Below, one piece after another: positions 2,781-33,857 of a DNA stretch of 40,061 nucleotides. Location: NCBI GenBank assembly GCA_045600805.1, contig JAZRYQ010000020.1, positions 1-40,061 on the forward strand. The letters are read 5' to 3'. The notes below the pieces were generated by a model that searched no databases, had not been told where the DNA came from, and saw nothing but the letters and a program-made list of their open reading frames with translations. The translations under genes and the position numbers were made by a program. The DNA comes from Candidatus Alloscillospira sp. (GTDB lineage: Bacteria; Bacillota; Clostridia; Oscillospirales; Oscillospiraceae). Every line of letters begins with the position of its first letter. Position 1 is the first letter of the stretch.

Positions 2781-2782
2781 GG

Positions 2783-5471: not shown

Positions 5472-5481
5472 TTTCATTTCC

Positions 5482-6116: not shown

Positions 6117-6148
6117 ATATTTGACCTCCATTTTTTAAGTCCATATAT

Positions 6149-6200: not shown

Positions 6201-6216
6201 TAAATTTTTTCCGAAA

Positions 6217-7053
6217 TCAAATTCCCATCATTTTCCCGACCACCTGATCCGAAAGTTTCACTGTTCCGACAAGCACAAGCATATTGAAGATGATCTCGCC
6301 GATATACGTCCATACCTGTGTAATCGCCGACGCGGAAGTATCCACGGACGGTGCTGCTCCGGCAAAGAGCGAGTAAATGATACAGGCGAGAACGATAATG
6401 GCTCCCTCCAAACATACGCCGGCAAACGACTTCAAAAAGCTCTTGCCGATGTTGCTTGTTTCTTCTCCGGCAAAAGAGGACAGCGGAACCGGTGCGATTG
6501 CGACGTACATGAATAATTTAAACATACGCCCATACACGGTCAGAATCAGCACAAAGGATAGTACCCAAACAAGCAAACTACCGATCAAAGTAACTGCCCA
6601 AAGCGGTATACTCTCCCAAAATCCGCAATCCTTTATCGTTTCGATCATACTGCTCGGCATGAAAACTCCCGTCGTTCCTCCGATACCGGAAGCCGACATA
6701 ATCTGTGAGATAATGCCCTGCACGATATTGAAAATCGCAAGCATCAGATCAAGTCCCCATGTAACTGCCGCTTTTGCCAGTACAAATCGGATAAATAGCT
6801 TCAATGCCTGCTCCGGTCGCTTGATCTCCTGCATGGAATTGTAATGCCTCATGATATTTACGAGGAAGAACAGCACAAGCAACGCATATCCGATTGCTTT
6901 GAGTGTGCCATTGATATTCGTCATTACGTTCCACACAGTACCTCCTTTGAAGGAAGTCGGCGACTCTGTCATGAGCCGCCATATTTCATTCAGTTTTTCG
7001 TTCCAAGTGTCGAGGGCATTTTGGATGTTCTCAACTACCCAGTTGTTCGACAT
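6217..7053 (-). CDS. VirB6-like polytopic T4SS membrane protein (CD0415/CD1112-like)
   Basis: 278 aa with about 6 predicted TM helices. It sits between the Maff2-like gene and PrgI/VirB4, as in Clostridial conjugative transposons. Confidence 0.75.
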   Translation of the reverse strand: MSNNWVVENIQNALDTWNEKLNEIWRLMTESPTSFKGGTVWNVMTNINGTLKAIGYALLVLFFLVNIMRHYNSMQEIKRPEQALKLFIRFVLAKAAVTWGLDLMLAIFNIVQGIISQIMSASGIGGTTGVFMPSSMIETIKDCGFWESIPLWAVTLIGSLLVWVLSFVLILTVYGRMFKLFMYVAIAPVPLSSFAGEETSNIGKSFLKSFAGVCLEGAIIVLACIIYSLFAGAAPSVDTSASAITQVWTYIGEIIFNMLVLVGTVKLSDQVVGKMMGI

Positions 7054-7082
7054 TCAATCGCCTCCTTGGTTTTATCATGGGA

Positions 7083-7409
7083 TTAACCGCCGGTGATGAG
7101 CGTCAGAATTTCTTTTGCGAAGGTAATGACAACACCGCCCGCAAGCGTCAGAAATCCCTGTGCTCTCTGCGAGGGATCGTGGGACTTGAGGGACAAACCG
7201 ATCTGCACGACCGCAAATCCGAGCATGATCATACCGACCGCACGGACAAGCCCGAACATAAAGTCAGAGAGGTTGTTGACGACTTGAATGGGATCATCCC
7301 CTGCGGCAAAGCAAGTCACCGCGCACATGCTGACCATCAATACCGCAATCACAACTACCGACCAAATTTTGAGAGCTTTTCTTGCTTTTTCAGGCATTTT
7401 CTTCTGCAT
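7083..7409 (-). CDS. Maff2-family small membrane protein
   Basis: Signal-anchor plus second TM (IWSVVVIAVLMVSMCAVTCFAAG...GMIMLGFAVVQIGL) and C-terminal LAGGVVITFAKEILTLITGG, immediately downstream of virD4. Start is uncertain (in-frame ATGs at 7421, 7409, 7397). The 150-aa ORF-track version runs deep into virD4. Confidence 0.65.
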   Translation of the reverse strand: MQKKMPEKARKALKIWSVVVIAVLMVSMCAVTCFAAGDDPIQVVNNLSDFMFGLVRAVGMIMLGFAVVQIGLSLKSHDPSQRAQGFLTLAGGVVITFAKEILTLITGG

Positions 7410-9297: not shown

Positions 9298-9487
9298 CCT
9301 TGCCTTTATCCTTCTGCTTCTTCGGCTCTGCGTCTAATGTCTTTTCAAGCAGAGCGTTGATGTCCTCGGTAGGTGTCTCATTTTGCAGACAACGGTTTCT
9401 TGTTTCGGCAAGTACACCGATCAGTGTTCTTCGCTCATAATCGTCTACTTCGATCTGGTACTTATTTCCCTTCTTCGTGCAAGTCAT
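9287..9487 (-). CDS. Small conserved hypothetical protein (66 aa)
   Basis: ATGA-coupled to the upstream gene and overlaps the virD4 start by 11 nt. No recognisable motif. Confidence 0.55.
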   Translation of the reverse strand: MTCTKKGNKYQIEVDDYERRTLIGVLAETRNRCLQNETPTEDINALLEKTLDAEPKKQKDKGKDER

Positions 9488-10374
9488 CGGGCATCACCGC
9501 CCCTCGCACTTTTAGATTTTGGGGAAACTTCATTCTCCTTGACGAGTGCCTTATACATACCGCTGTCAATTGCTTTCGCCGCATCGTGAATACGGGCAAG
9601 ACTCTCCCGGATATTAGCGGCATCCATAGAAGCATATTCGTCGGGGATTCGTTCGATCTTCAAAGCATCCGTCGGAACGCCGTATTTCTTGGCAAGGATA
9701 TAGGCGGCACAACGTGCTTCAAAAGCATGAGACGCAGTTGCGTAATCCTCAACTCCCCTGCTCATTTCCGCATGAGCAAGCGCCACGGTCACACTTGTAA
9801 AGATCTGTTCTTCATTCATACCGCATTTTGCGTAAATGCACTTATCGTTGGTATCATAAAGTGCGCCGTACTGACGGTTTTCGGGATAATCGGGAATCGT
9901 CTTGACTTCGACCGCCTTGTGTTTGAACAATGCCTTGACAACATCGTGCAAGGAATAAGCAGGATGGTTTTCGGGTTCTGCTCCGCTTACGTTGCTGATA
10001 TCAAACATGGACTTGCGTTCAAAGTTCGTGTATTCCTTGCCGTCCTTCATGACCTTCTTCGGTTCATAAATGTGGATGGACTTGGCACCCTTGTTGACTC
10101 TCGCTTTTTCTTTGTTCCAAAGATCCATGCCCTTGAGGCGGGTGGCATCGGGACGCTGGGCGAAAATCAGCAAATTATTGTTCGCAGAGTATCTGTCGAA
10201 GCGGCTCTGCACCGCAAGATAACTCTGAAAGTTATCCACACTGGATACCGCTTTTTTTGCCGCCTCATTCAGTTCGGCAATGCGCTGTTCGTTTCTTTCC
10301 TGCGACGACATTTTCATCGGTTTGTTTGCCGTCGCATCCTGCTTCTTCTGCAGGGCCTCATCAAAATTGCTCAT
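9484..10374 (-). CDS. ArdC-N-like (ssDNA-binding antirestriction-type) domain protein (296 aa)
   Basis: The motif SANNNLLIFAQRPDATRLKGMDLWNK...VNKGAKSIHI parallels the N-terminus of the giant ORF (SDQVLIFAQRPNATACAELEMWNK...VNRNAKGIAL), which I recognise as the ArdC N-terminal fold. The C-terminal half is unassigned. Confidence 0.6.
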   Translation of the reverse strand: MSNFDEALQKKQDATANKPMKMSSQERNEQRIAELNEAAKKAVSSVDNFQSYLAVQSRFDRYSANNNLLIFAQRPDATRLKGMDLWNKEKARVNKGAKSIHIYEPKKVMKDGKEYTNFERKSMFDISNVSGAEPENHPAYSLHDVVKALFKHKAVEVKTIPDYPENRQYGALYDTNDKCIYAKCGMNEEQIFTSVTVALAHAEMSRGVEDYATASHAFEARCAAYILAKKYGVPTDALKIERIPDEYASMDAANIRESLARIHDAAKAIDSGMYKALVKENEVSPKSKSARGGDAR

Positions 10375-15556: not shown

Positions 15557-18500
15557 TCAACGCTCGTCGATTTCATCATCGGGTTCACGTTCCTCCCGGT
15601 TTTCTTCGGTGCTTCTTTCTTTACTTTCGGGAGCAGAACCGTCGTCCTCTTTTTCTTCATCAACAAGATCGTTTTCGCGCTTGTCCATGTCAAGCTCGGA
15701 GTTGAGTTCATCGAGCCGTTTCATTTTGGCTTCCAGTTCTTCTTCCCTCGGGAACGGTGCTTCGACTTCTGCCTTTGCGTTTTCTATCTGCTTGTGCAGT
15801 TCGGCAAGCTGATCCCTACAGTTTTCAAGCTTCACGGAAAACGACTCAATCATATTGTCAAGACGGGTAATGATACCGTTTGCATCCTGTCCGAGTGAAA
15901 CCTTATGACTCAAAGTACCTTTCAGGTACACAAAGAACTCATGTCCTATCGTATCAAAGCCGATGTCCATTTTGAATCCTCTGTACTCTCCAAGTGGACG
16001 AGGGTCGGGGCTTGTGATCTTCTTACAGATTTCAAGTATTGCTTTACCTGCGTCCGCCTTGACGGTGATTTGCTGTCCCATAACCGTCATCGGTGAAAAG
16101 CCCTTATCATCTTCAAAGGTGTTCTCTTTGGCTCTTTGAATATCTGCCTCGTAACCTGCAATGCGTTCTTCTTTTGCCGAAACCTCTCTCGGATATTCCT
16201 TGAGGAGCTTATCTTCAAGCATATACCTTTGAGACAAGTGTGAGGACTTCTGTAACTTGAGTTTAGCAACGTCCGCGTCAAGCTGCATCTTCTCCATGAT
16301 CTTCGGGTTGCCCGTAGCCAGTGCTTTTATCTCTGCATAGGACAGAGCCGTATCGTCTACGTCCTCCGCACATCGAACCGGGGATTTACTCGTCATGATC
16401 TGCGAAATAAACTTCTGCTTGGATTCAAGCAACTGGTACATATACGCATCGAAGGTTCCTTCGGTGATATATCTGTAAATCTCGACTTCCGGGTTGGAGT
16501 TGCCCTGACGCACAATTCGTCCGAGCCGTTGTTCAAGGTCGGAGGGACGCCAGGGGCAATCAAGGTCATGGAGTGCGATCAAGCGTTCCTGCACATTCGT
16601 GCCGGCTCCCATTTTGAAGGTACTGCCCATGAGCACTCTCACCTGTCCGCTTCTCACCTTTGCAAACAAGTCTTTCTTCTTTACATCGGTATCCGCATCG
16701 TGAATAAATGCAATTTCTTGTTCCGGAATACCCTCGGAAATGAGTTTTTTCCGGATATCGTCGTACACGCTGAACTTGCCATCGTTATGCGGCGTTGACA
16801 AATCGCAGAACACAAGCTGTGCGGATTTCTGCTCGGAAGTCTTATGCCAGACGTCCACCACATTGCGGACGCATTGGTTGACTTTACTGTCAACGAAGTC
16901 TTCGAGCGTGCTGTTGATAAGCCGCTGATCAAGTGCGGCTTTTCGACCGTCGTTCGTGATGAGAAGCATATTGTCTTCATCGGAGGAAACCATGTGTGCA
17001 TGGACTCTCGCTGCTCTGTCGGCAAAGGACTGCACCAGTTCTTTCTGAATGTCGGAGGAAGGAACCTTTACAACGTGGAAGTTTGCTTTCGGGACAGGGA
17101 GGTTCAGCATATCTGCCGTCTGCACATCTGCGACCTCCTTGAACATTGCCATAAGTTCGGGAATGTTAAAGAATTTGGCAAACCTTGTCTTGGCTCGATA
17201 ACCCGAACCGTCCGGTGCAAGCTCAATTGCCGTTAAGGTTTCACCGAAGGTTGATGCCCACGAGTCGAAATTCGTGAGCCCCTTTTCCTTCATAGCGTCA
17301 TACTGAAGATACTTTTGCATGGTATAAAGCTCGACCATCGTATTGCTGATCGGAGTACCGGTCGCAAAGGTTACGCCCTTCCCGCCTGTCAGTTCGTCAA
17401 GATAGCGGCACTTCATATAAAGGTCACTGCTCTTTTGTGCTTCGGTCTGCGAGATACCTGCGACGTTACGCATCTTGGTGTATGCGGCAAGGTTCTTATA
17501 GAAATGCGCTTCATCCACAAAGAGCCGGTCAACACCGAGTTGCTCAAAGGTAACGACGTCATCCTTTCGGCTTCGGTCGTTGAGCTTGTCGAGCTTCTGT
17601 TGAAGTTGCTTTTTGGTTTTCTCCAACTGCTTGATTGTGAATCGCTCTCCGCGTTCATGCTTGAGCGTTTCAATGCTTTCCATGACCTCTTCTATCTCCG
17701 CCTGAATCATTTGCGTCTGCCGTTCAATCGACATCGGGATCTTTTCAAACTGAGAGTGACCGATAATGACGGCATCGTAATCGCCAGTTGCGATTCTCGC
17801 ACAGAATTTCTTACGGTTCTTCGTTTCAAAATCTTTCTTCGTGGCAACAAGGATATTGGCACTCGGATAGAGTTGCAGGTACTCACTTGCCCACTGAGAA
17901 ATAAGGTGGTTCGGGACAACGAACATACTCTTGGAACACAGTCCGATACGCTTCTGCTCCTGTGCGGCGGCAACCATCGTAAAGGTTTTGCCGGCACCGA
18001 CAACATGAGCCAGTAACGTATTGCCTCCGTACATAATACGGGCTACTGCGTCTACCTGATGGTCGCGCAATTTGATTTCCGGCGACATCCCGTAGAATTG
18101 AATGTGTTTACCGCTGTACTCACGGGGACGGATGCTGTTGAACTTTTCGTTGTAGAGCGTACAGAGCCGGTCACGCCGCGCCGGATCTTTCCAGATCCAT
18201 TCTTCAAACTTACGGCGAATCTCTTCCTGCTTGCCCTGTGCAATGGTGGTTTCCTTTTTATTGAGCACCGGCTTTTTGTTGCCGTGTTCATCCTCCACAT
18301 AATCAAACACCCGCACATCCTTGAGGTTCAACGAATCCTCGATGATGTTATAGGCATTGGCTCGTCCTGTTCCGAATACGCTCGTGGCTTTGACGTTGAA
18401 TCGGTCATAGGTCTTATCCGTAATCTGCCACTGTCCGGTGATCGGCTCAAACTTCACTTGAATCCGATACTTGTAATAGTACGGCGTTCCGAGCAATTCA

Positions 18501-21500
18501 TAGACAAACGCCTGAATATCCTCGGGTGGAATCCATGTTGCCCCAAGCCGTACACCGATTTCCGCCGCCGACAAATCCTTTGGCTGTACCTTTTCCAGTG
18601 CTTCAACATTGTCTTTGTAATCATCGGGATATTGTTCGGCACTGCGTCGTGCGACCGCAAGTTTTTCACGGACATTGCCCGACAGGTATTCGTCGGCGGG
18701 CAGATACTTCGGTGTCTTATCGTTGCCGAAGCCGTACAGGGGATTGAGGAAAATGACACCCTTGAGGTCATCAAAGATTTCATCTTCACTCTTTCCGGTC
18801 AGTTCCATCATATAGTCCATATCCACAAACGCTCTCTCACCGAGGGAAACAGCCAGTGCTTCACTTGCCGTATCGGTTTTCTCAACCGATAACTTCGGCT
18901 TGATCGTCCGCTTGGTAAAGATGTCTGCTTTTTCTTTGAGATTTCCTTCCTCGTCAAGCTTTTCAAGAGAACACAAGAGGAAGTAGGCATTATCATCATC
19001 GAATACGGATGCGTTGCCACGGCTGCCCAAGAGCCCGTATTTCGCGGTAAACTTATCGTACTGCTCATTGAGCTTCTGTTGCAGAGCGTGTACCGAACTG
19101 TCGGGATAGTTTTCAAGCTGCGCGTCGATCAGTTCACGAACCGTATCCCGAATGGCTATCATACCCTTGATTCTGTTCTCGCCTGTTGCCGTTGTCTCCA
19201 CCGGCTTCATCATACTGTTCTCGCGGTAATATATCTTACCGTTCACAACTGTGTATGAGAAATTCCGCACATTCGGATCGGCGGGGATCATGCCATCCGC
19301 TTCTTCTCCTGTCAGTTCTTCGGTTTGGATTTCATCAATCTCGGCATGAATATTCGCAACTGCTTCTGCCAGAAGGTCTTCCAGCTTCTCGTCTTCAAAA
19401 GGTCGGCAGCTTGACTGCGGACCGAATGGTCCCGAAACCATTTCCATATTGCCGAGGATCATTTCGGGATGGTCGATAAAGTATTGGTTCATCTCGATCC
19501 CGTTTGCATCGACTCCGAGGTGACACCAATCGGGATCGCATTCGATCACCCTGTCCCGCTTCTGGAGGAAGATGATATCGGCTACCGCTTCCGTTCCGGC
19601 GTTTGCTTTGAATGTGTTGTCGGGAAGTCTGATCGCTCCGAGAAAATCTGCTCTTGCGGCGATATACTTACGCACAGAAGCGTTCTGCTTGTCCATTGTG
19701 CCTTTACTGGTGATAAAGGCGATCACGCCACCGGGGCGTACTTGGTCAAGTGCCTTTCCGAAGAAGTAATCGTGAATGAGGAAGTTGTGCTTGTCGTATT
19801 TCTTATCCTGCACCTTAAACTGACCGAACGGCACGTTGCCGATTGCCACATCGAAGAAGCTATCCGGGAAGGAAGTGTTTTCAAAACCGCTGACCGTGAT
19901 GTTCTGCTTTTGATATAACTGCTGTGCAATACGTCCACTTATCGAATCAAGTTCGACACCGTAGAAGCGGGATTCGCTCATTGACTCGGGAACAAGTCCC
20001 ATAAAGTTGCCGACACCGCAGGACGGTTCAAGGATATTGCCACGGGTAAAGCCCATATTTGAAAGTGCCTTGTAGATTCCGTTGATCACGACAGGCGGCG
20101 TGTAAAATGCCGTCAGCGTGCTTTCTCTTGCGGCGGCATATTCGTCTTCGGTAAGCAGTTCTTTCAGTTCCGAATAGTGCGGACTGTCTTCTTCAAAACA
20201 ATCTGCAAGGCTGCCCCAGCCAACGTAACCGGCAAGGATTTTCTGCTCATTTTCATCGGCGAGTCTGTCTTCGCTTTCCAGTTTTTTCAACAGTCGAATG
20301 GCATCGACGTTTGCCTGATACTTCTCTACCGCTTTAAATGCAGTACCTTCATAGTCCGCCGTCTGAATACGGTAATCAAGCTTTTCGTCATACGGCACTT
20401 CCGGATGGAAAGCCGTAATCGCTTTTTTCGGCTTCGGCTTTTCTTCCTGCATGGTCGGCATTTCAGAGAATTCTTCGTCAGCGTCGGGCGCATTGCCCGG
20501 AAACATCCGGTATCCGTCTGCTCCTAACTCTGCTTCATATACGTCGCCCGCCTTCTCTGCTTCAAGATTTGAAATATAAGTTTCGATCTCACGGTCAATC
20601 TTATTGAGGTTTTCGGGAGTAAATTCCACATAGTCCGGCTCTGTTTCAAAGGTAGCCATCGCTTGCGTAAAATACGGTGTCCGTTCATTGGCAAGCTCAC
20701 AATCCGCCATCTCGCTGATACTCTCCACGAAAGCGTCAAGCTGTTCGCTGTCGGCAAAATCCCCCTCGTGACTTACAAAATCATCATACGCTTCTTTGAA
20801 AACGGAGAATGCGAGAGTGCTTGTAACAAACTGTCCGCCATCGGTTGCGTCCGGATTGTAATAAATCCAATAGAGTTCTTCTTTCGTTGAATCAAGGAAA
20901 ATGTGCGTTTCGTCGGAGATATTGGTTTTCGACTCTTTGATGGAAGACCAATACGCTTCAAGCGAATCGTAGATGTCAATTCGATAATCGGCTTCCGTCA
21001 ACTGTCTCAGGTATTTTTCCTGTACATGATTCGGAATACCGCACATCGGAACACGCTCGCCGTTTTCCATCTGCCTTGTTGTCAGCGTCAATCCGAGAAG
21101 ATTTGCGGCAGCTTGAGCTTCTTCACCGAGAAATTCAAGGAAGTCACCGACTATAACGGCTTTGATCCTCTTGATTTCCTTCTTCGGCTCATCCATTACC
21201 TCTGCTGTCGGCAGTTCAATCGGCTCGTGATAAATGAATGACTCATTCAACGGGTTCTCTTTGACACGACGGACAAACACATCAAGCGGCATTTCCATCG
21301 GGATCAGTGTGCCGTCAAACAACGATACTTCACCGTTTGTCGCCGACATCAACTGCACTTCGTCTTTCCCGATATGGAGCCAATCGCCGAGCTTCATGTC
21401 CAAACCGTGCTTTTTGAAATCCACATCGACCGTCGGCTCTTCCGCCGCAGGTTCTGCGGCTCGCAAAGCGATTTGCTCTCCCGGCTCGGGCTTGTGCTTT

Positions 21501-24448
21501 CTGTAAGACGAATGCGGGAACAGATCATACTTTCCGTTATCGAACTTGATAAGGTCTTCAAGAACCTTTTTATCATGATCGTAATATCTGCTACCCGGCA
21601 TTTCGCTGTCGAACACTTCCTGCATGGAAGCAATCAACTCACGGAGTTTTTCCTTGTCCTCCAGAAGAGGGATAATCTCTTCGGTTTTATCCTCAAAGAA
21701 GCTGTCCTTTTCCATGCTGAACGGTCTTGCCACATCTGACGGTTTTCCCGAATAGAAGCCCTGCACTCCCTGTGCAAGGATCGACAGTTCGTACCGGTCA
21801 AGCGATGCCGCTTCTTTCGGAGTCAGGTATCTGTTCTCTTTTATAAGAGCCGCGATGCGATTGGCAACCTGTGTCCAACTCATAAGAATGTCCCTGTGAT
21901 CAAACTTGTCAAGTCCGCCGGCAATCGCCAAGCCCTTCCCGTCGTGGTTTTCATTCACTCGTGAAGTGGAAGATCCGCCGATTCCATATTCGTTTGACAG
22001 GAACTTGGCTCTTTCCCCGTTGTCCTTGTGGTTAAGAAAAAAAGAGTAAATACGGTACTTTCCCTCGCTGATACTGCTGCCTTGCCGAATCAGATTGTTA
22101 TCAATCTGGTCTTGCGAGAGATAGTGTTCGGGAGGAAGTACATATTCTTCCTGCGGGTACTCCATCGGATCTCTGCGGTAACTGTTGACAAGCATCTTGA
22201 CAAACTGCGGCGTATATCCGTCCCGTCTGCGCGGATTCTCTGTCATTTCATCTACTGCCTTTTCAAAAGCCGGAATGAACTGTTCGGCTCTTTCCGGTTT
22301 ATTCAAGGTCGCATAAAAAGAAACCACCTGCTCCGGATACCCATTATCTGTCGGTTCAAACGGAAGCTTGGCATCCCGGAAGAAATCCCTGTAAACATTG
22401 GTCAGCCGTTCAGCAACGTCCTTGTTGTAGATACCGATTGCCCTCGGCACATCATCTTTGGAGATATACTGACCGAGTTCGATCAGTTGTCGGATACGGC
22501 TATCCATCTCCGCCCATGTGAGCGTTGACGTTCTCCATGCCTTTGCCACACTGTCGCCGGTTGAGAAAGTAACGCCGTCCTCATTCCATGACACCGCACA
22601 TTTCTGCCCGTTGACGATCAATCCAACAGCGTCGCTTTCATATTCGGCACGGAGATAACGGATATTTTCCTCCTGATTGTTTGCTCGGAGATAATACCCA
22701 TATATACGGTAGTTGCTGTTTTTCGTGCAACCGCCGAGACGAAGAAAACCGTCAATGACCTCCTGCGAAACGCAGAGATCTGTCCGGGGTTTCGGTGCAT
22801 CAATCGGCTTTGGCTTTTCAACTACAACTTCTGTCGGCTTTTCTTCTTTCAAGTCCGGCATCTTTTCTACTTTGGGATCAAGGTAGTTATTATCCTTGAT
22901 CAGTGCTTCGATCAGCGTTCTGGTCAAGTCCCAACTGAATGTCGCACTTGCTGACGGGTTCAGGAAAGTGCCACGAAATAAATGAAGACCGTCATCAAAA
23001 AGTCCGCTGTATCCGAGATAATCATCTTTGTTTTCATCTTTCCAAAAACTGATTGTGGCTTTCGGGAAGCACTCCCGGATATAATCGTTCTTTCTCTGCT
23101 CATTCTTTTCCCCGGACAGAAAAAGCACAATGTCTTCCTTACTGTGCGTAAGGTCATCACTGTGCTTTAAGATTTTGATCATTTCCTCCGGCAAAAGGAA
23201 TGCGGGAGGTTCTTCTTTTTGTGGCTCGTCGGTTATGCGTAAATATGATTTATTTAACAATAAATCAGTTCGCTCAGAACCGTCTCCTCCGCCGAAGCTT
23301 TGATGTTGTTCATCTCCTGTACCCACAGCATCTGATCCTTGGCTTTCAGCGATTCGTTGATCCCACGGCTCGTCGCCATTTGGTTCATAAGGCGCGAAAG
23401 CATCGTCTTCGCCTCCAGGTCGATCTTGTGCAGATACTCGTTCAGGCGGAACTGCGTCAGAAGCGTCGTATAGGTTCCCTTCCGGTGTTCCTTGATGAAT
23501 TGCAGTCTCAGGTCGCCGTACTTCCCGATTGGGTAATTCGTCTGCTCCGGCACTTTCAGTTCGGGATACAGCATCCCGTCTGTCCCCTCGCGGTAAGTCA
23601 GATTCAGTTTTTCCATATTCTTGTCCTCCTTGATCGGTAGTTTTTTCTTTTTCAGCACTATTGTATTCCTTTTCTTTTTTCTCGTCAAATGTGCGAATTT
23701 CTTTTTCGCAGTTTTTGACCGTTCGCTCAATATCCCGCAAAACCACCTGTGCAATATCGCTTGTCGCATTACCGAGCAGGTTAATGGTTTCGGGGGTGTC
23801 GAACTCCCACAGACTGTCAAAGTCCACATCCCCAAGGTACAGATCTGCGTCAGCCCCCAGTCTCGTCAACACCGTATAGGCAACGCTGATTCCAAGCAAC
23901 GGCTGAAATCTTGCACGGATATTATCCTCATCAAGCCCCTCAAGGTTACTGTTTTCTGTAAGTGAGAGCAGATCAGCCATATAGTCGGTCATGTTATCCT
24001 GTACCGCATTTCTGCAAGCGGATTCTACGGCAATAAAGAATTCGTCTGTGTCTTCCAGTTCGCCGAAACGGTTTTCCAGAGAATCAAGAACATCGTCTTT
24101 GTATTCGTCTTTGAGCTTCCACAGGTTCAACTGTTCGCCGTGACGACCGTGGGTATCCGCCACGTCGAAGACATAGCGGATACCGGTGTACGTGCCTTTG
24201 TCCTGAATCAATGCAATCCCCTTTGCGTTTCGATTTACCCATCGGTCAAAGGTTTTATTCCACATTTCAAGTTCGGCACATGCGGTTGCATTCGGACGCT
24301 GAGCAAAAATGAGAACCTGATCGGAAAAAGGATACTTATACTGAAATGCCGCCGTTTTTAAGAAGCCGCACCATGTTTCAAGCGTATCCGTTAAGATACC
24401 AAGCTGACGGTCATATACTTCTCGAATCAAGTCTATTTTTCTCGGCAT
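15557..24448 (-). CDS. Giant polyvalent protein (2963 aa): ArdC-N-like, duplicated unknown domain, MutS-domain-I-like, N6-adenine DNA methyltransferase, SNF2/DEAD-like helicase, coiled-coil acidic tail
   Basis: Single uninterrupted ORF. Motifs located on the DNA: MTase motif I EPSCGVGNFMG (19998..20029), motif IV GNVPFG (19823..19840); helicase Walker A VVGAGKTF (17981..18004), DEAH VDEAHFYKN (17492..17518), motif VI QRLGRIVRQG (16501..16530). Confidence 0.9.
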   Translation of the reverse strand: MPRKIDLIREVYDRQLGILTDTLETWCGFLKTAAFQYKYPFSDQVLIFAQRPNATACAELEMWNKTFDRWVNRNAKGIALIQDKGTYTGIRYVFDVADTHGRHGEQLNLWKLKDEYKDDVLDSLENRFGELEDTDEFFIAVESACRNAVQDNMTDYMADLLSLTENSNLEGLDEDNIRARFQPLLGISVAYTVLTRLGADADLYLGDVDFDSLWEFDTPETINLLGNATSDIAQVVLRDIERTVKNCEKEIRTFDEKKEKEYNSAEKEKTTDQGGQEYGKTESDLPRGDRRDAVSRTESAGADELPNREVRRPETAIHQGTPEGNLYDASDAVPPERVSAQDRPGGEDDAFAPYEPNGDEPWDQRIAESQGSDAVGTGDEQHQSFGGGDGSERTDLLLNKSYLRITDEPQKEEPPAFLLPEEMIKILKHSDDLTHSKEDIVLFLSGEKNEQRKNDYIRECFPKATISFWKDENKDDYLGYSGLFDDGLHLFRGTFLNPSASATFSWDLTRTLIEALIKDNNYLDPKVEKMPDLKEEKPTEVVVEKPKPIDAPKPRTDLCVSQEVIDGFLRLGGCTKNSNYRIYGYYLRANNQEENIRYLRAEYESDAVGLIVNGQKCAVSWNEDGVTFSTGDSVAKAWRTSTLTWAEMDSRIRQLIELGQYISKDDVPRAIGIYNKDVAERLTNVYRDFFRDAKLPFEPTDNGYPEQVVSFYATLNKPERAEQFIPAFEKAVDEMTENPRRRDGYTPQFVKMLVNSYRRDPMEYPQEEYVLPPEHYLSQDQIDNNLIRQGSSISEGKYRIYSFFLNHKDNGERAKFLSNEYGIGGSSTSRVNENHDGKGLAIAGGLDKFDHRDILMSWTQVANRIAALIKENRYLTPKEAASLDRYELSILAQGVQGFYSGKPSDVARPFSMEKDSFFEDKTEEIIPLLEDKEKLRELIASMQEVFDSEMPGSRYYDHDKKVLEDLIKFDNGKYDLFPHSSYRKHKPEPGEQIALRAAEPAAEEPTVDVDFKKHGLDMKLGDWLHIGKDEVQLMSATNGEVSLFDGTLIPMEMPLDVFVRRVKENPLNESFIYHEPIELPTAEVMDEPKKEIKRIKAVIVGDFLEFLGEEAQAAANLLGLTLTTRQMENGERVPMCGIPNHVQEKYLRQLTEADYRIDIYDSLEAYWSSIKESKTNISDETHIFLDSTKEELYWIYYNPDATDGGQFVTSTLAFSVFKEAYDDFVSHEGDFADSEQLDAFVESISEMADCELANERTPYFTQAMATFETEPDYVEFTPENLNKIDREIETYISNLEAEKAGDVYEAELGADGYRMFPGNAPDADEEFSEMPTMQEEKPKPKKAITAFHPEVPYDEKLDYRIQTADYEGTAFKAVEKYQANVDAIRLLKKLESEDRLADENEQKILAGYVGWGSLADCFEEDSPHYSELKELLTEDEYAAARESTLTAFYTPPVVINGIYKALSNMGFTRGNILEPSCGVGNFMGLVPESMSESRFYGVELDSISGRIAQQLYQKQNITVSGFENTSFPDSFFDVAIGNVPFGQFKVQDKKYDKHNFLIHDYFFGKALDQVRPGGVIAFITSKGTMDKQNASVRKYIAARADFLGAIRLPDNTFKANAGTEAVADIIFLQKRDRVIECDPDWCHLGVDANGIEMNQYFIDHPEMILGNMEMVSGPFGPQSSCRPFEDEKLEDLLAEAVANIHAEIDEIQTEELTGEEADGMIPADPNVRNFSYTVVNGKIYYRENSMMKPVETTATGENRIKGMIAIRDTVRELIDAQLENYPDSSVHALQQKLNEQYDKFTAKYGLLGSRGNASVFDDDNAYFLLCSLEKLDEEGNLKEKADIFTKRTIKPKLSVEKTDTASEALAVSLGERAFVDMDYMMELTGKSEDEIFDDLKGVIFLNPLYGFGNDKTPKYLPADEYLSGNVREKLAVARRSAEQYPDDYKDNVEALEKVQPKDLSAAEIGVRLGATWIPPEDIQAFVYELLGTPYYYKYRIQVKFEPITGQWQITDKTYDRFNVKATSVFGTGRANAYNIIEDSLNLKDVRVFDYVEDEHGNKKPVLNKKETTIAQGKQEEIRRKFEEWIWKDPARRDRLCTLYNEKFNSIRPREYSGKHIQFYGMSPEIKLRDHQVDAVARIMYGGNTLLAHVVGAGKTFTMVAAAQEQKRIGLCSKSMFVVPNHLISQWASEYLQLYPSANILVATKKDFETKNRKKFCARIATGDYDAVIIGHSQFEKIPMSIERQTQMIQAEIEEVMESIETLKHERGERFTIKQLEKTKKQLQQKLDKLNDRSRKDDVVTFEQLGVDRLFVDEAHFYKNLAAYTKMRNVAGISQTEAQKSSDLYMKCRYLDELTGGKGVTFATGTPISNTMVELYTMQKYLQYDAMKEKGLTNFDSWASTFGETLTAIELAPDGSGYRAKTRFAKFFNIPELMAMFKEVADVQTADMLNLPVPKANFHVVKVPSSDIQKELVQSFADRAARVHAHMVSSDEDNMLLITNDGRKAALDQRLINSTLEDFVDSKVNQCVRNVVDVWHKTSEQKSAQLVFCDLSTPHNDGKFSVYDDIRKKLISEGIPEQEIAFIHDADTDVKKKDLFAKVRSGQVRVLMGSTFKMGAGTNVQERLIALHDLDCPWRPSDLEQRLGRIVRQGNSNPEVEIYRYITEGTFDAYMYQLLESKQKFISQIMTSKSPVRCAEDVDDTALSYAEIKALATGNPKIMEKMQLDADVAKLKLQKSSHLSQRYMLEDKLLKEYPREVSAKEERIAGYEADIQRAKENTFEDDKGFSPMTVMGQQITVKADAGKAILEICKKITSPDPRPLGEYRGFKMDIGFDTIGHEFFVYLKGTLSHKVSLGQDANGIITRLDNMIESFSVKLENCRDQLAELHKQIENAKAEVEAPFPREEELEAKMKRLDELNSELDMDKRENDLVDEEKEDDGSAPESKERSTEENREEREPDDEIDER
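16450..18080 (-). other. SNF2-family helicase core (approximate bounds)
   Basis: Walker A, DEAH and motif VI, as listed for the giant ORF. Confidence 0.8.
19450..20340 (-). other. N6-adenine DNA methyltransferase domain (approximate bounds)
   Basis: SAM-binding motif I (GVGNF) and catalytic motif IV (NVPFG, the NPPY-type variant) in gamma-class order. Confidence 0.8.
20966..21175 (-). other. MutS domain-I-like module within the giant protein
   Basis: IVGDFLEFLGEEAQAAANLLGLTLTTRQMENGERVPMCGIPNHVQEKYLRQLTEADYRIDIYD aligns by eye to E. coli MutS [62 protein letters not shown]. The Phe-x-Glu motif is retained. Confidence 0.6.
23254..23616 (-). CDS. tnpV: TnpV-family protein (120 aa) encoded in the +1 frame inside the giant ORF
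   Basis: AAGGAGG lies 8 nt upstream of the ATG at 23616 and the stop is TAA at 23254. The product MEKLNLTYREGTDGMLYPELKVPEQTNYPIGKYGDLRLQFIKEHRKGTYTTLLTQFRLNEYLHKIDLEAK...SLKAKDQMLWVQEMNNIKASAEETVLSELIYC carries the hallmarks I recall for TnpV (PIGKYG, HR.GTYTTLLT, RLNEYL, WVQEMNN, AEE.VL.E.IY). The overlapping frame of the giant ORF encodes only a low-complexity linker here. Confidence 0.6.
   Translation of the reverse strand: MEKLNLTYREGTDGMLYPELKVPEQTNYPIGKYGDLRLQFIKEHRKGTYTTLLTQFRLNEYLHKIDLEAKTMLSRLMNQMATSRGINESLKAKDQMLWVQEMNNIKASAEETVLSELIYC
23850..24448 (-). other. ArdC-N-like domain of the giant protein (approximate bounds)
   Basis: FSDQVLIFAQRPNATACAELEMWNKTFDRWVNRNAKGIALI. Paralogous to the 9484..10374 product. 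Confidence 0.6.
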
Positions 24449-28351: not shown

Positions 28352-28989
28352 CAGCGTTCACCCTCCGTTTTCTTTTTGATTTTCGTTCTGTCGTATTCCT
28401 CCTTGAGCACACCTTTGCAAATATCCGACACTGTTTTCTTTGCATAAGGCGGGAGCAAATTTTCGGGGACGATTCCCATCACATGAGAACGCTCAACACG
28501 CACCCGACTGCGAGAATACAAATTCCATCCGAAGCATGCACTGCCCCGGCTGTTCGCCTCCGATCCAAACCCGCCGTCGATATAGAACAGTTGATTTGAG
28601 ATGTTTCTTCTGCCGTCAGACAAGGACTGCGGCCGGATAGCGACCACCGTCCCCTTGATGGAATCCTCCCATCCGCAAGGAATCATGTCCTTTGCTTCAA
28701 GGCAGGAGACATCCGATAGCGGAATCGCCCGTTTTTCGTTTTCAAGGATAATTGCCTCGGCTTTGATATTATCCGCATAGTGTTTGATCGCCTCGAAATA
28801 ATCGTCGGAAACAATTCCTTCGTATCTGCCGAATAATCCGTTATCCAGCACGATGCAGGAGATATACCTTGGCTTTTCTTTGTTTTTCTCGTTGACACCA
28901 AACACGATTCGTTTTCCGTCAATCCAGGTCGAGGACTCGATTTCATAGTCCTCGATCATTTCTTTTTCTTCGTCTCTGTATCCCATCAT
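28351..28989 (-). CDS. Hypothetical protein (about 212 aa)
   Basis: The ATG at 28989 forms an ATGA overlap with the stop of the 1623-aa gene. No motif recognised. Confidence 0.55.
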   Translation of the reverse strand: MMGYRDEEKEMIEDYEIESSTWIDGKRIVFGVNEKNKEKPRYISCIVLDNGLFGRYEGIVSDDYFEAIKHYADNIKAEAIILENEKRAIPLSDVSCLEAKDMIPCGWEDSIKGTVVAIRPQSLSDGRRNISNQLFYIDGGFGSEANSRGSACFGWNLYSRSRVRVERSHVMGIVPENLLPPYAKKTVSDICKGVLKEEYDRTKIKKKTEGER

Positions 28990-31900
28990 TTCTGCCCCAG
29001 GTACCAATCATCATAGATCGTTCCGTTGATCGCAACGGTGTTGGCGTTTCGTGTCGCGGTAATCATCCCTGCGGGAGTCCAGATCTGTGTTGCGGTTACA
29101 GATACAACATAGTTTCCATCCTTAAACCACACGGGAATGAAATGAACCCGACCGCTGTTTTCCGCACATGAATTCGGGGCAAAGCAATAAGTGCCTCCGA
29201 CAAGCTGCAAAGTGCGGCAAGAGCCGTTTGCCAAAGAGTAATTAAACTCGGGGAATGCGGCTACTACGCTCTGCGCTCCCGTATAGGCATTGCTGTCAGG
29301 CATGGAATAGCCGCCCAGAGTACTAATGCCCGGAGCATACGAAACCGTGATTCCGTACCCGGACTTCATCGTCCATTTGCCCGATTCATAGACAGCCGTT
29401 GAGCAGTTACCCTCCGGTGCTACCGACGGAGAAGCGGTGCTGACTTTTATTCCGTAGTTTTTCAAAACAAAAGCACCGTTTTCATAAACGTACTGATTCC
29501 ACGTGGCACTTCCTGCCGTAACGCTCGGAGCACTCAAACCGCCGTAAGATGCCGGCTTGTCCGCCTCATATCTTGTGTTCGGTGTCTGTGAATCCGCAAC
29601 GGTTACGATCTTTTTGGAAAAGGTGACTGTATTATTCGTGCGGTCTTCTTCATTCAACGTCCCGCCGTAGTTGGTAGTACATTCACAATAGACCGTCTTT
29701 CCGGCAAGAGTTGTCGGAACAGTCCATTTGAAATAGACGAGATTGCTCTTTCCGGTCGGAATCACGAAATCCTCCCAATCCTGACTTGTAACGCTGACCT
29801 CGGCACTGCCGCTGAAATAATATGCTCGGAAATGCACTCTGTTGTGCTTATCCGGGACAATATCTTCCGTCCCGTCGTTGTAAATAATGAAGCTTGAAAT
29901 CACGGTGTTCCCTGCCACATAGTCAGCGTCAACTGTAACCTGTTTTACTGACTGCGCATAGTCGTAATCCTTTACAGTCAGAACGGCGGATTTACTGTTG
30001 TTGGATGAATCCACTTCCCGGCTGCGATCAGCCCAGTTGATTCTTACCGTAACCGTATGATCACCGGTCGCACTGCCAACCGAAAGCGTGAAGGTCAAAG
30101 TAGCTCGTCCGTATGCCGACAGGTTTATTGTCTTGGCGGATACCACGCTCCCGTCGTACAGCAATTCAACAGAAATACCTGAATAAGCATTTTTCATATC
30201 CCAACTATCGACTACGGAAGTAACCGTAACACTGCCGTATTTGGATGACTCGGTTTCGGAAAGCGAGATACTTGTCACAGACAAATCGTAGTTGGTCTTT
30301 TCCCATACGGCATACAAGGTGATTGCTCCGTTTGCCGTATAGCTTGCACCGGGCACATAGGTGGCAGACGTTGCCTTGCTGTCCGCACTCCAACCGAGAA
30401 AATCGTAACCGCTTCTTGTCGGCTTTGCCGATGAGAGCGTCAACGCGATTCCATAAGTCTTTGTTTGACTTGCGGGTACTCCGCTGCCGCCGTTACCGTT
30501 ATATACAACGGAATAGGTTTTGATCCTCCATACTGCGTACAGGGTTGCCCCGGCGTTTGCCGTATAGCTTCCGCCTGCCGTGTAAGTTGCCGACGTTGCG
30601 GTGCTGTTTGTACTCCATCCCAGAAAATCGTATCCTTCCATTGTAGGCTTTACGGAAGAAAGCGTCAATGTTACTCCATAGGTCTTTATCTGACTTGCGG
30701 GTGCTCCGGTGCCGCCATTCGCATTAAAACTGACTGTATAGGTATCCGGCGTATAAGACCAGACCGCATATAAGGTTGCTCCGGCATTTACCGTATAACT
30801 TCCTCCTGCCGAATAGGTGGCAGTTGTTGCCGTACTGCTTGTACTCCATCCGAGAAATGTGTACTGGCTTCTCGTCGGTTTTACAGACGAAAGTGTAAGC
30901 GTTACGCCGTAGGTCTTTGTCTGACTTGCAGGTGCTCCGGTGCCGCCATTGGCGTGATACGAAACCGTATAGGTGTCCGGCGTATAAGACCAAACGGCAT
31001 ATAAAGTGATACTTGCATTGGCGGTGTATGAGCCGCCCGCCGAATACGCGGCACTCGTTGCCGTACTGTTTGTTGCCCAACCAAGAAACGTATACTGGCT
31101 TCTTGTCGGTATCGTTGCAGGCAAGATGAGCGTTACATCATCGGTTTTCGTCTGATCTGACGGTGCTCCGCTGCCTCCGTTGGCATGAAATGATACTGTG
31201 TAAGTTGCAGGTGTATAACTCCATACCGCGTATAAGGTTGCAGACGCATTGACCGTATAGCTTCCCCCTGCGGAGTAAGTGGCGCTTGTCGCCGTACTGC
31301 ATGCAGACCAACCGAGAAAGGTATAATTCTTTCTTGTAGGTTTAGTAGACGAGAGCGTCAGTGCTTCACCATAAATCTTTGTCTGACTTGACGGCGCACC
31401 GGAGCCGCCGTTTGCACTATACGAAATTGTATAGGTCGTCGGGGTATAAGTCCATACCGCATATAAGGTCACAGAGGTATTTAATGTGAATATCCCTCCT
31501 GCGAGATACTCGGCACCGGTTGCCGTATTGCTTTTAGCCCATCCAAGAAACGTATAATTCGTTCTCGTCGGTTGCGTGGAGGATAACGTCAGCGTGACGT
31601 CCTCCGTTTTGGTTTGACTTGCAGGCGCGCCTGAACCGCCGTTTGCGTTATAGGAAATCGTATAGGTGTTCGGAGGGATTGCCTCCCATATTGCATATAA
31701 CGTAAGTGCACCGTTACCGGTATAACTACTGCCCGGCTGATAGGATGCCGTCGTTGCCTTGCTTGATGTTCCCCATCCCATAAAAGTATAGCCGTTTCTG
31801 GTAGGTACAACAGAGGAAAGAGTTAAAGCCACACCATAGGTTTTGGTTTGACTTGACGGTGCCCCCGAACCGCCGTTCGCATTAAAAGAAACCGTATAAG

Positions 31901-33857
31901 TCGGAGGGGTATACTTCCATACTGCGTACAATGTGGTATCGGCATTCGCTGTAAATGAACCGCCTGCCGAATAGGTTGCGCTCGCCGCACCGCTGCTCGT
32001 GCTCCATCCGAGGAAAGTGTAATTCGTTCTCGTCGGTATTACACCCGAAAGCACCAATGAAACACCGTAAGTCTTGGTTTGACTTGCGGGTGCGCCTGAA
32101 CCTCCATTGGCGTTATAGGAGATCGTATAAGTCGGAGGCGTATACTCCCAAACGGCATACAGCATCGTATTTGCATTTGTTGTAAAGGTTCCACCTGCGG
32201 CATAGGTGGCAACCGTTGCCGTACTGCTTACACTCCAACCGAGAAACGTATAATACGTTTTTGTCGGTTTGGTAACGGAAAGGATCAAGGTCACGCCGTG
32301 CGTCTTGGTTTGAGCGGACGGTGCGCCTGTGCCACCGTTTGCGCTATACGAAATCGTATATGTGGTAGGCGAATAACTCCATACCGCATACAATGTCGTG
32401 TTTGCATTTGTGGAAAAGGAACCGCCCGCCGAATAGGTGGCACTTGTTGCCGTACTGCTTGTACTCCAACCGAGAAAAGTGTAATTGGAACGTGTTGGCT
32501 TTGTATTCGACAGTGTCAGTGTCACGCCATAGGTCTTGGTTTGACTGGAAGGTGCTCCGCTTCCGCCGTTGGCATTATACGATATTGTGTATTTCGCCGG
32601 CGAATAACTCCACACCGCATATAAAGTCGTATTTGCATTGGTTGTAAAGGACGCACCCGGTGAATACGTCGCACTTGTCGCCGTACTGCTTGTACTCCAT
32701 CCAAGGAAAGCATAATTGCTTCTCGTCGGCTTTGTACTTGATAGCGTCAAGGTTACATTTTGCGTTTTGGTCTGACTTGCAGGCGCACCGGAACCGCCGT
32801 TGGCGTTATAGGAAATCGTATATGTTTTTGGCGTATTGGATTCCCATACCGCGTATAAAGTCTTCGTGGAATTGACCGTGTACGATCCACCCGGCTGATA
32901 GGATGCCACGCTTGAGCTACTGCTTGTTCCCCAACCCTTGAAGGTATACCCGCTACGAGTCGGAACGTCCGATGGAAGAGTCATATCCCTGCCGTAAATT
33001 TTGGTAACGCTGCCCGGCGCTCCGCTGCCGCCGTTAGCATCAAAACTGATGGTATAGGTGTTCAAATCATAATAGTAGTCGATATTACAAACACGATTAA
33101 TGCAATAGTCCATCTTACCATGCTTTGATTCACTATACGTAGACCAATCGTCCATATCTTCCGATAAAGGTGTGTTTACATATTTATAACTGTAACAACG
33201 CGGACTGGAAGGCATATTTTTGTACTTTCCAACCCATGTCCACGAGAACTTACCGGAAATACTCGACTCATAACCGTCTTTGAGATGATAGCCGGTAATT
33301 GTCCTTTTGGATGTCGAAATATAGTCATAGTAGTCAATGGTTGACGAGGCTGAATCGTACTTTGTGTAGTACTTGTAATTCGGATTGGTCGGGTCAATAT
33401 TCTGAATATAGTGATTTACAACAAGTTGTATACTCTCGGATTTTCTTACAGTAACAGTGGCCTCTAGTTGGCTCTTACTAAGTCCGGTGTAAAACTGATA
33501 ATTGATTTGAATATATGCCGATGTGCAAAGGCCTGTCCCACTCGTCCACGTAATTTTACAGGTTTCAAGCAGACTTTGGTTGCTTGAAAAAGCTACGATA
33601 TCGTAGCCATACAGAGAAAGCGAAATTAGATCGTCCTCTCCTGTTTTAGTATGATAAGTTACCTTCTTGACAAGACTTCCGCTTGTATCCACACAACTTA
33701 CGACGACCGTTCGGTTGCATTCGCTTGACGGAAACAGATACTCTACCGAAGATGTTCCGTCCGGCTCATAGTATGTTGCGCTGACTGCAAGTGACATAAC
33801 CATGAGCATCATGATCGCAAACAGCGCAACAAATAAGATTTTTATTTTTCTCTTCAT
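28986..33857 (-). CDS. Giant secreted repeat protein / putative adhesin: signal peptide, Cys/Tyr-rich N-domain, 12 Listeria-Bacteroides (Flg_new-type) repeats, two CARDB-like domains, C-terminal beta-rich domain; no LPXTG
   Basis: Signal peptide MKRKIKILFVALFAIMMLMVMSLAVSA. Repeat unit YT[IV]S[YF]NANGGSGAP.SQTKTYGV.LTLSS.KPTR..YTFLGW.T.S.AT.A.Y.AGGS.T.NA..TLYAVW. CARDB-like ends ...EVDSSNNSKSAVLTV and ...EEDRTNNTVTF. Confidence 0.85.
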   Translation of the reverse strand: MKRKIKILFVALFAIMMLMVMSLAVSATYYEPDGTSSVEYLFPSSECNRTVVVSCVDTSGSLVKKVTYHTKTGEDDLISLSLYGYDIVAFSSNQSLLETCKITWTSGTGLCTSAYIQINYQFYTGLSKSQLEATVTVRKSESIQLVVNHYIQNIDPTNPNYKYYTKYDSASSTIDYYDYISTSKRTITGYHLKDGYESSISGKFSWTWVGKYKNMPSSPRCYSYKYVNTPLSEDMDDWSTYSESKHGKMDYCINRVCNIDYYYDLNTYTISFDANGGSGAPGSVTKIYGRDMTLPSDVPTRSGYTFKGWGTSSSSSVASYQPGGSYTVNSTKTLYAVWESNTPKTYTISYNANGGSGAPASQTKTQNVTLTLSSTKPTRSNYAFLGWSTSSTATSATYSPGASFTTNANTTLYAVWSYSPAKYTISYNANGGSGAPSSQTKTYGVTLTLSNTKPTRSNYTFLGWSTSSTATSATYSAGGSFSTNANTTLYAVWSYSPTTYTISYSANGGTGAPSAQTKTHGVTLILSVTKPTKTYYTFLGWSVSSTATVATYAAGGTFTTNANTMLYAVWEYTPPTYTISYNANGGSGAPASQTKTYGVSLVLSGVIPTRTNYTFLGWSTSSGAASATYSAGGSFTANADTTLYAVWKYTPPTYTVSFNANGGSGAPSSQTKTYGVALTLSSVVPTRNGYTFMGWGTSSKATTASYQPGSSYTGNGALTLYAIWEAIPPNTYTISYNANGGSGAPASQTKTEDVTLTLSSTQPTRTNYTFLGWAKSNTATGAEYLAGGIFTLNTSVTLYAVWTYTPTTYTISYSANGGSGAPSSQTKIYGEALTLSSTKPTRKNYTFLGWSACSTATSATYSAGGSYTVNASATLYAVWSYTPATYTVSFHANGGSGAPSDQTKTDDVTLILPATIPTRSQYTFLGWATNSTATSAAYSAGGSYTANASITLYAVWSYTPDTYTVSYHANGGTGAPASQTKTYGVTLTLSSVKPTRSQYTFLGWSTSSTATTATYSAGGSYTVNAGATLYAVWSYTPDTYTVSFNANGGTGAPASQIKTYGVTLTLSSVKPTMEGYDFLGWSTNSTATSATYTAGGSYTANAGATLYAVWRIKTYSVVYNGNGGSGVPASQTKTYGIALTLSSAKPTRSGYDFLGWSADSKATSATYVPGASYTANGAITLYAVWEKTNYDLSVTSISLSETESSKYGSVTVTSVVDSWDMKNAYSGISVELLYDGSVVSAKTINLSAYGRATLTFTLSVGSATGDHTVTVRINWADRSREVDSSNNSKSAVLTVKDYDYAQSVKQVTVDADYVAGNTVISSFIIYNDGTEDIVPDKHNRVHFRAYYFSGSAEVSVTSQDWEDFVIPTGKSNLVYFKWTVPTTLAGKTVYCECTTNYGGTLNEEDRTNNTVTFSKKIVTVADSQTPNTRYEADKPASYGGLSAPSVTAGSATWNQYVYENGAFVLKNYGIKVSTASPSVAPEGNCSTAVYESGKWTMKSGYGITVSYAPGISTLGGYSMPDSNAYTGAQSVVAAFPEFNYSLANGSCRTLQLVGGTYCFAPNSCAENSGRVHFIPVWFKDGNYVVSVTATQIWTPAGMITATRNANTVAINGTIYDDWYLGQK
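30300..33056 (-). repeat. 12 tandem coding repeats of about 231 bp (about 77 aa)
   Basis: Counted from the translation. First unit starts at the TAT at 33056 and the last ends ...TLYAVWE at about 30300. Confidence 0.85.

Follow-up and report, generated by a model that had tools for sequence, protein, structure and literature searches.

Two overlapping genes in a conjugative element

The stretch of DNA analysed here, referred to as the window, comprises positions 1 to 40,061 of contig JAZRYQ010000020.1 (40,061 nucleotides, nt) from Candidatus Alloscillospira sp. (assembly GCA_045600805.1). It belongs to a type IV secretion system (T4SS) conjugative element with genes for a relaxase, a VirD4/TraG-type coupling protein and a VirB4-like ATPase. 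One of its genes is a giant open reading frame (ORF) of 2963 amino acids (aa), 24448..15557 on the minus strand, which places many effector domains in one polypeptide beside T4SS genes, as polyvalent proteins do. Inside this ORF lies a second one on the same strand, 23835..23254, which is open for 193 aa from a TTG and contains the gene tnpV. The features of the overlap are as follows.

15557..24448, minus strand: giant ORF, 2963 aa, of polyvalent type, with N-domain, linker, MutS_I, Eco57I-type methylase, SNF2/ResIII helicase and Helicase_C
23663..24448, minus strand: N-terminal domain (N-domain), residues 1-262, AlphaFold2 (AF2) predicted local distance difference test score (pLDDT) about 90, possibly ArdC-N-like
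23210..23665, minus strand: linker, residues 262-413, predicted disordered, Gly/Asp/Glu/Arg/Ser/Pro-rich, its codons overlapping tnpV
22901..23209, minus strand: first folded post-linker domain, residues 414-516, AF2 pLDDT 72-90, in the frame and ORF of the N-domain
23254..23616, minus strand: tnpV coding sequence, 120 codons and TAA, in the +1 frame of the giant ORF, from translation
23625..23631, minus strand: Shine-Dalgarno AAGGAGG, 8 nt before the tnpV ATG, read from the sequence
23660..23688, minus strand: sigma-A-type promoter-like TTGACG-17-TACAAT inside the giant ORF, its -10 ending 43 nt before the tnpV ATG

The tnpV coding sequence runs from an ATG at 23616..23614 to a TAA at 23256..23254, and it lies in the +1 frame of the giant ORF because (24448 − 23616) mod 3 = 1. 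Two long ORFs in different frames of one strand therefore have 363 nt in common. An earlier note, made from the letters of the window alone, had reported two same-strand open frames across 23254-23835, an AAGGAGG 8 nt before the ATG at 23616 and a TAA at 23254; the nested ORF is present inside the 2963-aa ORF, and all of these positions are exact. The 120-aa product, MEKLNLTYREG...PIGKYG...HRKGTYTTLLT...RLNEYL...WVQEMNN...AEETVLSELIYC, carries the four internal motifs written out here, which the note had taken as marks of the TnpV family. Read in the giant frame the same DNA gives ...GKTESDLPRGDRRDAVSRTESAGADE...GTGDEQHQSFGGGDGSERTDL, and translation of the 2963-aa ORF bears out the description of this segment as a Gly/Asp/Glu/Arg/Ser/Pro-rich linker. 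A linker motif given in the note for homologous proteins (...G..DEQ....GGG.....L.L) was found in an alignment of 21 homologs, where it takes the form REVR ... DEQ....GGG....L.L. The invariant E380 of this alignment is the conserved M-N of TnpV (ATGAAC) read in the giant frame.

The nested product is a member of the TnpV family

A search of the 120-aa product against the Pfam TnpV profile (PF14198), which the earlier note had proposed as a check, gave a full-length match with E = 1.2e-39 and 135.2 bits over profile positions 5–111 of 111; the gathering score of the family is 27 bits. The gene also has the size and context of the family, whose proteins are about 110-125 aa long and are encoded with their own start and stop in mobile elements. 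The AF2 model has a mean pLDDT of 86.6 and consists of a beta-hairpin and five helices. A fold search with this model against PDB and BFVD returned nothing significant, so it provided no functional lead, and an NCBIfam scan of TnpV together with the first 516 aa of the giant protein gave zero matches. TnpV has a postulated Xis-like role in Tn4451/Tn4453-type mobilisable transposons and integrative and mobilisable elements (IMEs) (PMC3158075), while its role in MOBQ2 IMEs is described as ‘unknown, possibly transfer’ (PMC12084326). The stand-alone TnpV of Tn4451/Tn4453-type elements and the nested one are alike in PF14198 membership, length and mobile-element setting.

Conservation of the overlap across Bacillota

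With the first 516 residues of the giant protein as query, a protein search recovered homologs whose alignment continues through the linker, as well as some ORFs of 380–410 aa with PF14198 in frame. A species-representative genome collection yielded at least 518 confirmed relatives, of which the best-scoring 80 loci were fetched; these have 31–65% aa identity and include Clostridia, Bacilli, Paenibacillus, Cohnella, Dehalobacter and Desulfosporosinus. The sources used numbered 84, made up of the window and 83 others including 3 metagenome loci, and three-frame translations of the loci were searched with profiles of TnpV, the N-domain and the post-linker domain.

Full-length TnpV was found in all 84 sources, at 125–174 bits and roughly 50–100 nt past the N-domain, with no internal stop. 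It lies in frame N+1 in 81 of the 84. The exceptions are two frame-shifted metagenome contigs (L002 and L003) and L028 from Desulfosporosinus sp. Tol-M, which has a stop inside the N-domain (4148-4150) and an intact nested tnpV. In 78 of 81 loci, isolate genomes among them, the N-domain ORF crosses tnpV without interruption and continues into the following domain, in most cases as far as the fetched sequence extends, and the post-linker domain shares its frame and ORF segment with the N-domain in nearly all loci. A Clostridium perfringens plasmid whose N-domain is far more distant (114 bits) has an identical arrangement. In two loci, perhaps through a recent split or an assembly error, the N-domain ORF ends 38-122 nt past tnpV, still reading fully through it, so that the overlap is kept although it joins nothing there: in L072 (3414-4640) it stops 38 nt past tnpV, and in L100 the N-domain and linker form an ORF of 437 aa (4001-5314) separate from the SNF2 giant (5399-9314). 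These counts, for which the earlier note had suggested a synteny comparison of homologous elements (tnpV full length in all, giant frame open through it in 78/81), together with the Pfam match and the full-length TnpV in all 80 homologous loci uphold its claim of a complete TnpV gene overprinted in the +1 frame.

The note had also supposed that such dual coding could be widespread and overlooked, and this holds, with 80 species-level loci carrying a nested tnpV and the RefSeq plasmid records inspected showing one gene only. Just one of the two overlapping genes is annotated in each of three RefSeq plasmid records inspected. In RefSeq, plasmids of C. perfringens, C. botulinum and E. faecalis are annotated with the outer gene only, as a ‘helicase-related’ or ‘SNF2-related protein’; for example, the giant ‘helicase-related protein’ stands alone at 2292-6348 of the C. 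perfringens locus L085 (NZ_CP102305.1). On the Cohnella herbarum plasmid NZ_CP051681.1 (L084) the nested 3001-3339 is annotated as ‘TnpV protein’, and the open giant ORF 2115-6332 is missing from the gene table, with a minus-strand ‘hypothetical protein’ entered instead.

The outer frame is held open by selection

Across these loci the giant frame is held open by selection. A stop arises in it wherever a tnpV codon ending in T is followed by one beginning with AA, AG or GA. The earlier note had counted by hand more than 30 codons with such beginnings in the window tnpV and roughly 16 ending in T; the exact numbers are 36 and 16, and none are adjacent. Shuffling synonymous codons within the window tnpV gave a probability of 0.003 that the giant frame is open, with 3.9 stops expected, and drawing codons according to their usage in the remaining giant ORF gave 1e-4, with 8.1 stops expected. 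Pooled over 81 loci, T-ending codons stand before an AA, AG or GA codon at 0 of 2911 at-risk positions in tnpV. T at the third codon position (T3) amounts to 14.3% in the non-risky contexts of tnpV and to about 29% in risky contexts where only one frame is coding, namely the N-domain and the parts downstream (Fisher p about 1e-160). The proposal that chance is an unlikely cause of this openness and that both frames are under selection is thus sustained, and with TnpV full length in 84/84 sources, the giant frame open in 78/81 loci and 0/2911 stop-creating T, both frames are kept in diverged homologs beyond chance.

The composition of tnpV is unusual outside the risky contexts as well. G at the third position (G3) reaches 41–58%, and T3 is 14% in non-risky contexts against 32% in the flanks. 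As tnpV is G-rich and T-poor even where no stop would arise, the linker frame also disfavours codons that begin with T (Phe, Leu, Ser, Tyr, Cys and Trp). Stand-alone tnpV genes differ in both respects. Our sample of these came from pSGG1, tnpV–DUF6809 cargo modules, a Salmonella IncHI2 plasmid, a Campylobacter or Pusillibacter copy directly after a serine recombinase, and a Vescimonas plasmid. They have 3, 10, 14, 14, 4 and 4 stops in the frame equivalent to the giant ORF, a T3 of 16–38% and an ordinary G3, whereas nested tnpV is recoded, with zero T before AA, AG or GA.

In a neighbour-joining tree of TnpV without support values the stand-alone copies are scattered among the nested ones, and the tnpV–DUF6809 group is sister to the clade of the window and L004. 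The tree, given without support values, suggests that there were several transitions between nested and stand-alone tnpV. The stand-alone tnpV genes of L087-L094 encode products 61-64% identical to the window TnpV and are paired with a DUF6809 gene, the stop and start of the pair overlapping (e.g. L087 5001-5351 and 5348-5614). The neighbours of these modules are MarR/MatE or ABC-transporter cargo and recombinase or integrase genes. A derivation of the post-linker domain of the giant protein from DUF6809 was considered and rejected, as the two have zero similarity.

TnpV is the sequence-constrained reading

TnpV is under purifying selection. The entropy of codon positions 1, 2 and 3 is 1.06, 0.80 and 1.33 in the TnpV frame, which is the classical pattern, and 1.09, 0.83 and 1.65 in the N-domain, while in the linker frame the third position is the most conserved (0.83). 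Mean pairwise aa identity is 47% for TnpV, 47% for the N-domain and 29% for the linker frame. The Nei–Gojobori ratio of nonsynonymous to synonymous substitution rates (dN/dS) is 0.23 in the TnpV frame and 0.13 in the N-domain, and has an apparent value of 1.64 in the linker frame. Linker residues 262-413 have an AF2 pLDDT below 50 (about 30) and lie between two confident domains. TnpV is therefore the sequence-constrained frame, and the overlapping frame is a predicted disordered linker that is open, T-poor and G-rich.

Putative expression signals of the nested gene

Both frames are conserved together with a Shine-Dalgarno, a start codon and promoter-like motifs. The arrangement GAAAGGAG-N8-ATG is kept across loci, with a spacing of 8 nt in 48 of them, and the start codons comprise 78 ATG, 3 GTG and 2 TTG. 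No other nucleotide feature of the region is as well conserved as the block G-A-A-A-G-G-A-G followed by eight bases and ATG. Several loci have a tnpV-frame stop between the Shine-Dalgarno and the ATG, so that TnpV must start translation independently. The region around the start is rich in A (45%). RNA structure around the Shine-Dalgarno and start is not more stable than that of shuffled sequences (z = +1.16); this stretch looks unstructured, and no frameshift-stimulating structure was found there. One locus (L012, ~1325-1340) has ATT at the place of the tnpV ATG of its relatives, behind an intact GAAAGGAGG.

An element equivalent to the promoter-like TTGACG-17-TACAAT of the window lies 25–49 nt 5′ of the tnpV ATG in 66 of 78 loci, in the same codon phase, and its spacer is exactly 17 in nearly all loci that have it. 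The family consensus is TCGCACATTTGnnA-17-TATGAT/TATAAT. Promoter-like scores of at least 10 are reached by 56% of loci and by 1.8% of 496 control windows from the same ORFs. The -35 region is TCGCACATTTG, which the giant frame reads as the codons R-T-F (CGC ACA TTT). The third positions of these codons are conserved in 58–73 of the 78 loci and carry 0.9-1.6 bits, and the spacer is nearly random at 0.1-0.4 bits. A promoter would be the simplest reading of this conserved element, and a DNA signal may explain the conserved ‘RTF...Y[ND]’ protein motif. At sequence level the inner gene thus has independent signals for translation and transcription, from which we infer that it is transcribed and translated and that both products are expressed. 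A weak terminator-like hairpin at 23266..23282 on the minus strand, a 6-bp stem followed by ATTTATTGTT, ends at the tnpV stop codon; it would fall inside the giant ORF and is within chance expectation for the region.

Alternative explanations

The earlier note had offered as an alternative that the A-runs just upstream of tnpV allow a +1 shift or transcriptional slippage; as a programmed ribosomal frameshift or slippage, this would make TnpV the C-terminal domain of a fusion with the N-domain and not a separate protein. The window does have A5-A6 runs at 23640-23690 and a tnpV frame open back to 23835, and seven public ORFs have PF14198 in frame with the N-domain (P0058, P0100, P0107, P0109, P0083, P0114 and P0003), with P0100 and P0107 differing in frame within an A-rich tract. 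Over the loci, however, the longest A-run in the 150 nt upstream of tnpV is only 3–8 nt and its position is not conserved, 37 of 79 loci have a tnpV-frame stop no more than 36 nt before the ATG, and the zero frame runs on for about 2,600 codons past the putative shift site. A fusion would also make a strong, canonically spaced Shine-Dalgarno and ATG unnecessary, and these are conserved. The fused ORFs change frame at differing points, some of them in A-rich tracts, through deletions (P0003, P0083, P0114) or single-base shifts (P0058, P0109), and are probably mutations or assembly errors. With no conserved slippery site from which the alternative frame is open, the fusion found no support and we regard it as most unlikely. 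A reading of the 2963-aa ORF as a frameshift or assembly artefact, or as a chance open frame over what are really separate head-domain, tnpV and helicase/methylase genes, would fit L100 and L072, where the N-domain ORF ends apart from the SNF2 giant or 38 nt past tnpV, and the split call in L003. It is extremely unlikely given one uninterrupted ORF from N-domain through tnpV to the next domain in 78 of 81 independent assemblies, an N-domain ORF that reads wholly through tnpV even in L100 and L072, and the exclusion of chance openness. The giant gene is the only one that gene callers and RefSeq report at these loci, which would suit a nested tnpV that is an unexpressed relic, with the constraint acting on the linker and the TnpV frame passive or the Pfam family a shadow of the linker. 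This is very unlikely too, since tnpV also exists as a stand-alone gene in settings unrelated to this one (behind a serine recombinase, within tnpV-DUF6809 cargo modules, on plasmids of Campylobacter and Salmonella), and the nested TnpV ORF is full length and stop-free in all 84 sources despite saturated divergence. The pattern of constraint also runs the wrong way for a relic (third position most conserved and dN/dS 1.64 in the linker frame, against a dN/dS of 0.23 and an identity equal to that of the N-domain for TnpV), the Shine-Dalgarno, ATG and promoter-like motif are conserved, and the model of TnpV is confident where that of the linker is not.

A further alternative concerns transcription, namely that TnpV is translated only by internal initiation on a long giant-gene mRNA and that the promoter-like motif is a protein motif or some other DNA or RNA signal. 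A Shine-Dalgarno and an ATG are enough for internal initiation, and an R-T-F...Y-[DN] motif could have a function in the protein, where the N-domain helix ends. The information content of the CGC-ACA-TTT third positions relative to the spacer, the fixed length of 17 nt of a spacer whose sequence varies, and -35 and -10 regions of a quality far above that of control windows argue for a promoter instead, and we consider internal initiation alone to be a real but lesser possibility. This alternative draws on one of several points that weigh against our preferred interpretation, in which tnpV is a nested gene with its own signals: a promoter scan of the window alone was not above chance (2 sites against 2.9 expected). 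The case for the promoter comes from conservation across loci, where the anchored profile partly forces the -10 positions, and both the promoter and the Shine-Dalgarno are putative assignments deduced only from consensus and conservation. The earlier note had proposed a test for suppressed synonymous variation in tnpV, and such suppression did not appear: in a Nei–Gojobori comparison of 20 independent close pairs tnpV showed no significant reduction of the synonymous rate (dS) relative to the adjacent N-domain (median ratio 0.89, with 11 of 20 pairs below 1, sign test p = 0.82). The outer frame therefore limits which bases are permitted and not the sequence of the linker, and classical tests of suppressed synonymous variation might give a weak signal. 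Because the N-domain ORF of L100 and L072 ends soon after tnpV, the overlapping frame is not always an inter-domain linker. Finally, the conservation counts describe the best-scoring 80 of at least 518 relatives and not more distant ones.

Origin and significance of the overlap

The best explanation, which we hold with considerable confidence, is that tnpV is a genuine nested gene and that one stretch of DNA codes for both TnpV and the disordered linker of the polyvalent protein. The linker would join the N-terminal (possibly ArdC-N-like) head to the rest of that protein, read one base earlier in frame. TnpV would be the older, sequence-constrained reading and the linker a passenger reading with only two requirements, to be stop-free and to be hydrophilic. 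Production of TnpV would not depend on that of the giant protein: translation would start from the conserved Shine-Dalgarno and ATG of tnpV, and transcription probably from a separate sigma-A promoter embedded in the last part of the N-domain coding region. The overlap is likely to have originated when a head-domain gene was fused to downstream effector modules by reading across the intervening tnpV, with a later synonymous recoding of tnpV that would have purged every T-AA, T-AG and T-GA junction.

We suggest more tentatively, as something possible but short of probable, that this was a ‘bridge-over-a-gene’ fusion, in which head and effector genes became one translocated polyvalent protein across a still-functional tnpV that kept or acquired its own promoter. 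TnpV could then differ from the giant protein in timing or in the cell, donor or recipient, where it is made, and it may act on or with the giant protein or the transferred DNA. Both this evolutionary route and any functional link between the two proteins are inferences. If correct, the overlap would be among the deepest and most widespread conserved long same-strand overlaps in bacteria, and invisible to standard annotation.

In bacteria, long gene overlaps are uncommon and most claims of them are disputed, and annotation pipelines forbid overlaps by design. The tnpV overlap is an unusually clean case, with a curated family that has stand-alone members, at least 80 species-level lineages, 0 stop-creating T at 2911 positions and its own expression signals. 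It provides a natural system in which a folded protein and a disordered linker share codons, as well as a plausible route for gene fusion across an intervening gene. It also exposes an annotation gap, as TnpV is missed beneath ‘helicase-related’ and ‘SNF2-related’ proteins, and the puzzling conserved ‘linker’ motifs of polyvalent proteins would be shadows of TnpV, of the tnpV Shine-Dalgarno and of the tnpV promoter. Since TnpV accompanies this family of polyvalent proteins almost universally, it deserves priority in functional work.

Comparison with known overlaps

The closest parallels differ from tnpV in several ways. In Bacillus subtilis the 46 codons of comS lie out of frame on the same strand within srfAB, a surfactin synthetase gene, and are taxonomically narrow; we know of no stand-alone family for comS. 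Both cases have a small, independently translated gene embedded same-strand and out of frame in a very large multi-domain gene of a Firmicute. However, tnpV has 120 codons and belongs to a widespread Pfam family that also occurs alone, its overlap spans classes of Bacillota, and its outer frame is a disordered linker and not an enzymatic domain. The spanin gene Rz1 of phage lambda lies in the +1 frame of Rz. Compositional bias or disorder is typical of the younger frame in overprinting, and in viruses the nested frame is usually the novel protein. The Rz1/Rz pair and viral overprinting (reviewed in PMC8227390) share with tnpV a same-strand +1 nesting in a mobile element, with one reading compositionally biased or disordered. 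In tnpV, by contrast, the nested protein would be the ancestral, folded one and the new reading a linker that fuses the parts of a larger protein, and an interaction like that of Rz with Rz1 is not evidenced for TnpV and the giant protein.

The giant ORF itself resembles the polyvalent proteins of conjugative elements described by Iyer et al. 2017 (PMC5512222), having a possible head of single-stranded DNA-binding type, MutS-I, an SNF2 ATPase and a DNA methylase in a T4SS element. The system as described there has no second gene within the linker between head and body, and that paper makes no mention of TnpV, ‘overlapping’, ‘frameshift’ or ‘linker’. No prior description of the tnpV overlap was found in the searchable literature, subscription-only papers lying outside the search.

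Other features of the giant protein, the fused ORFs and the element

The earlier note had called the N-domain ArdC-N-like. The top Foldseek match of this domain is ArdC of R388 (6sna_F, E = 0.017, probability 0.99, low TM-score), which makes the label a possible one. Pfam does not back it: even at E <= 10 no ArdcN match came up, and no credible domain in the N-domain, in the post-linker domain or in residues 521–1020. The metagenome ORFs with PF14198 in frame with the N-domain are 374-414 aa long; P0058 is 3594-4745 of L003, P0100 is 6001-7230 of L002, and P0003, though probably a mutation or assembly error like the others, stands for 38 member sequences.

Further neighbours of the giant ORF include YodL/DUF3846, LPD28 and a surface protein with Flg_new repeats. 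A DUF3801 gene and the relaxase are followed directly downstream by a 296-aa ORF (9484..10374, minus strand), which matches the N-domain profile over the first ~110 profile positions and has no nested TnpV. At 28986..33857 on the minus strand lies an ORF of 1623 aa with 12 Listeria-Bacteroides (Flg_new) repeats, probably a surface adhesin of the conjugative element, and a similar Flg_new-type gene is found upstream of the N-domain gene in L001.

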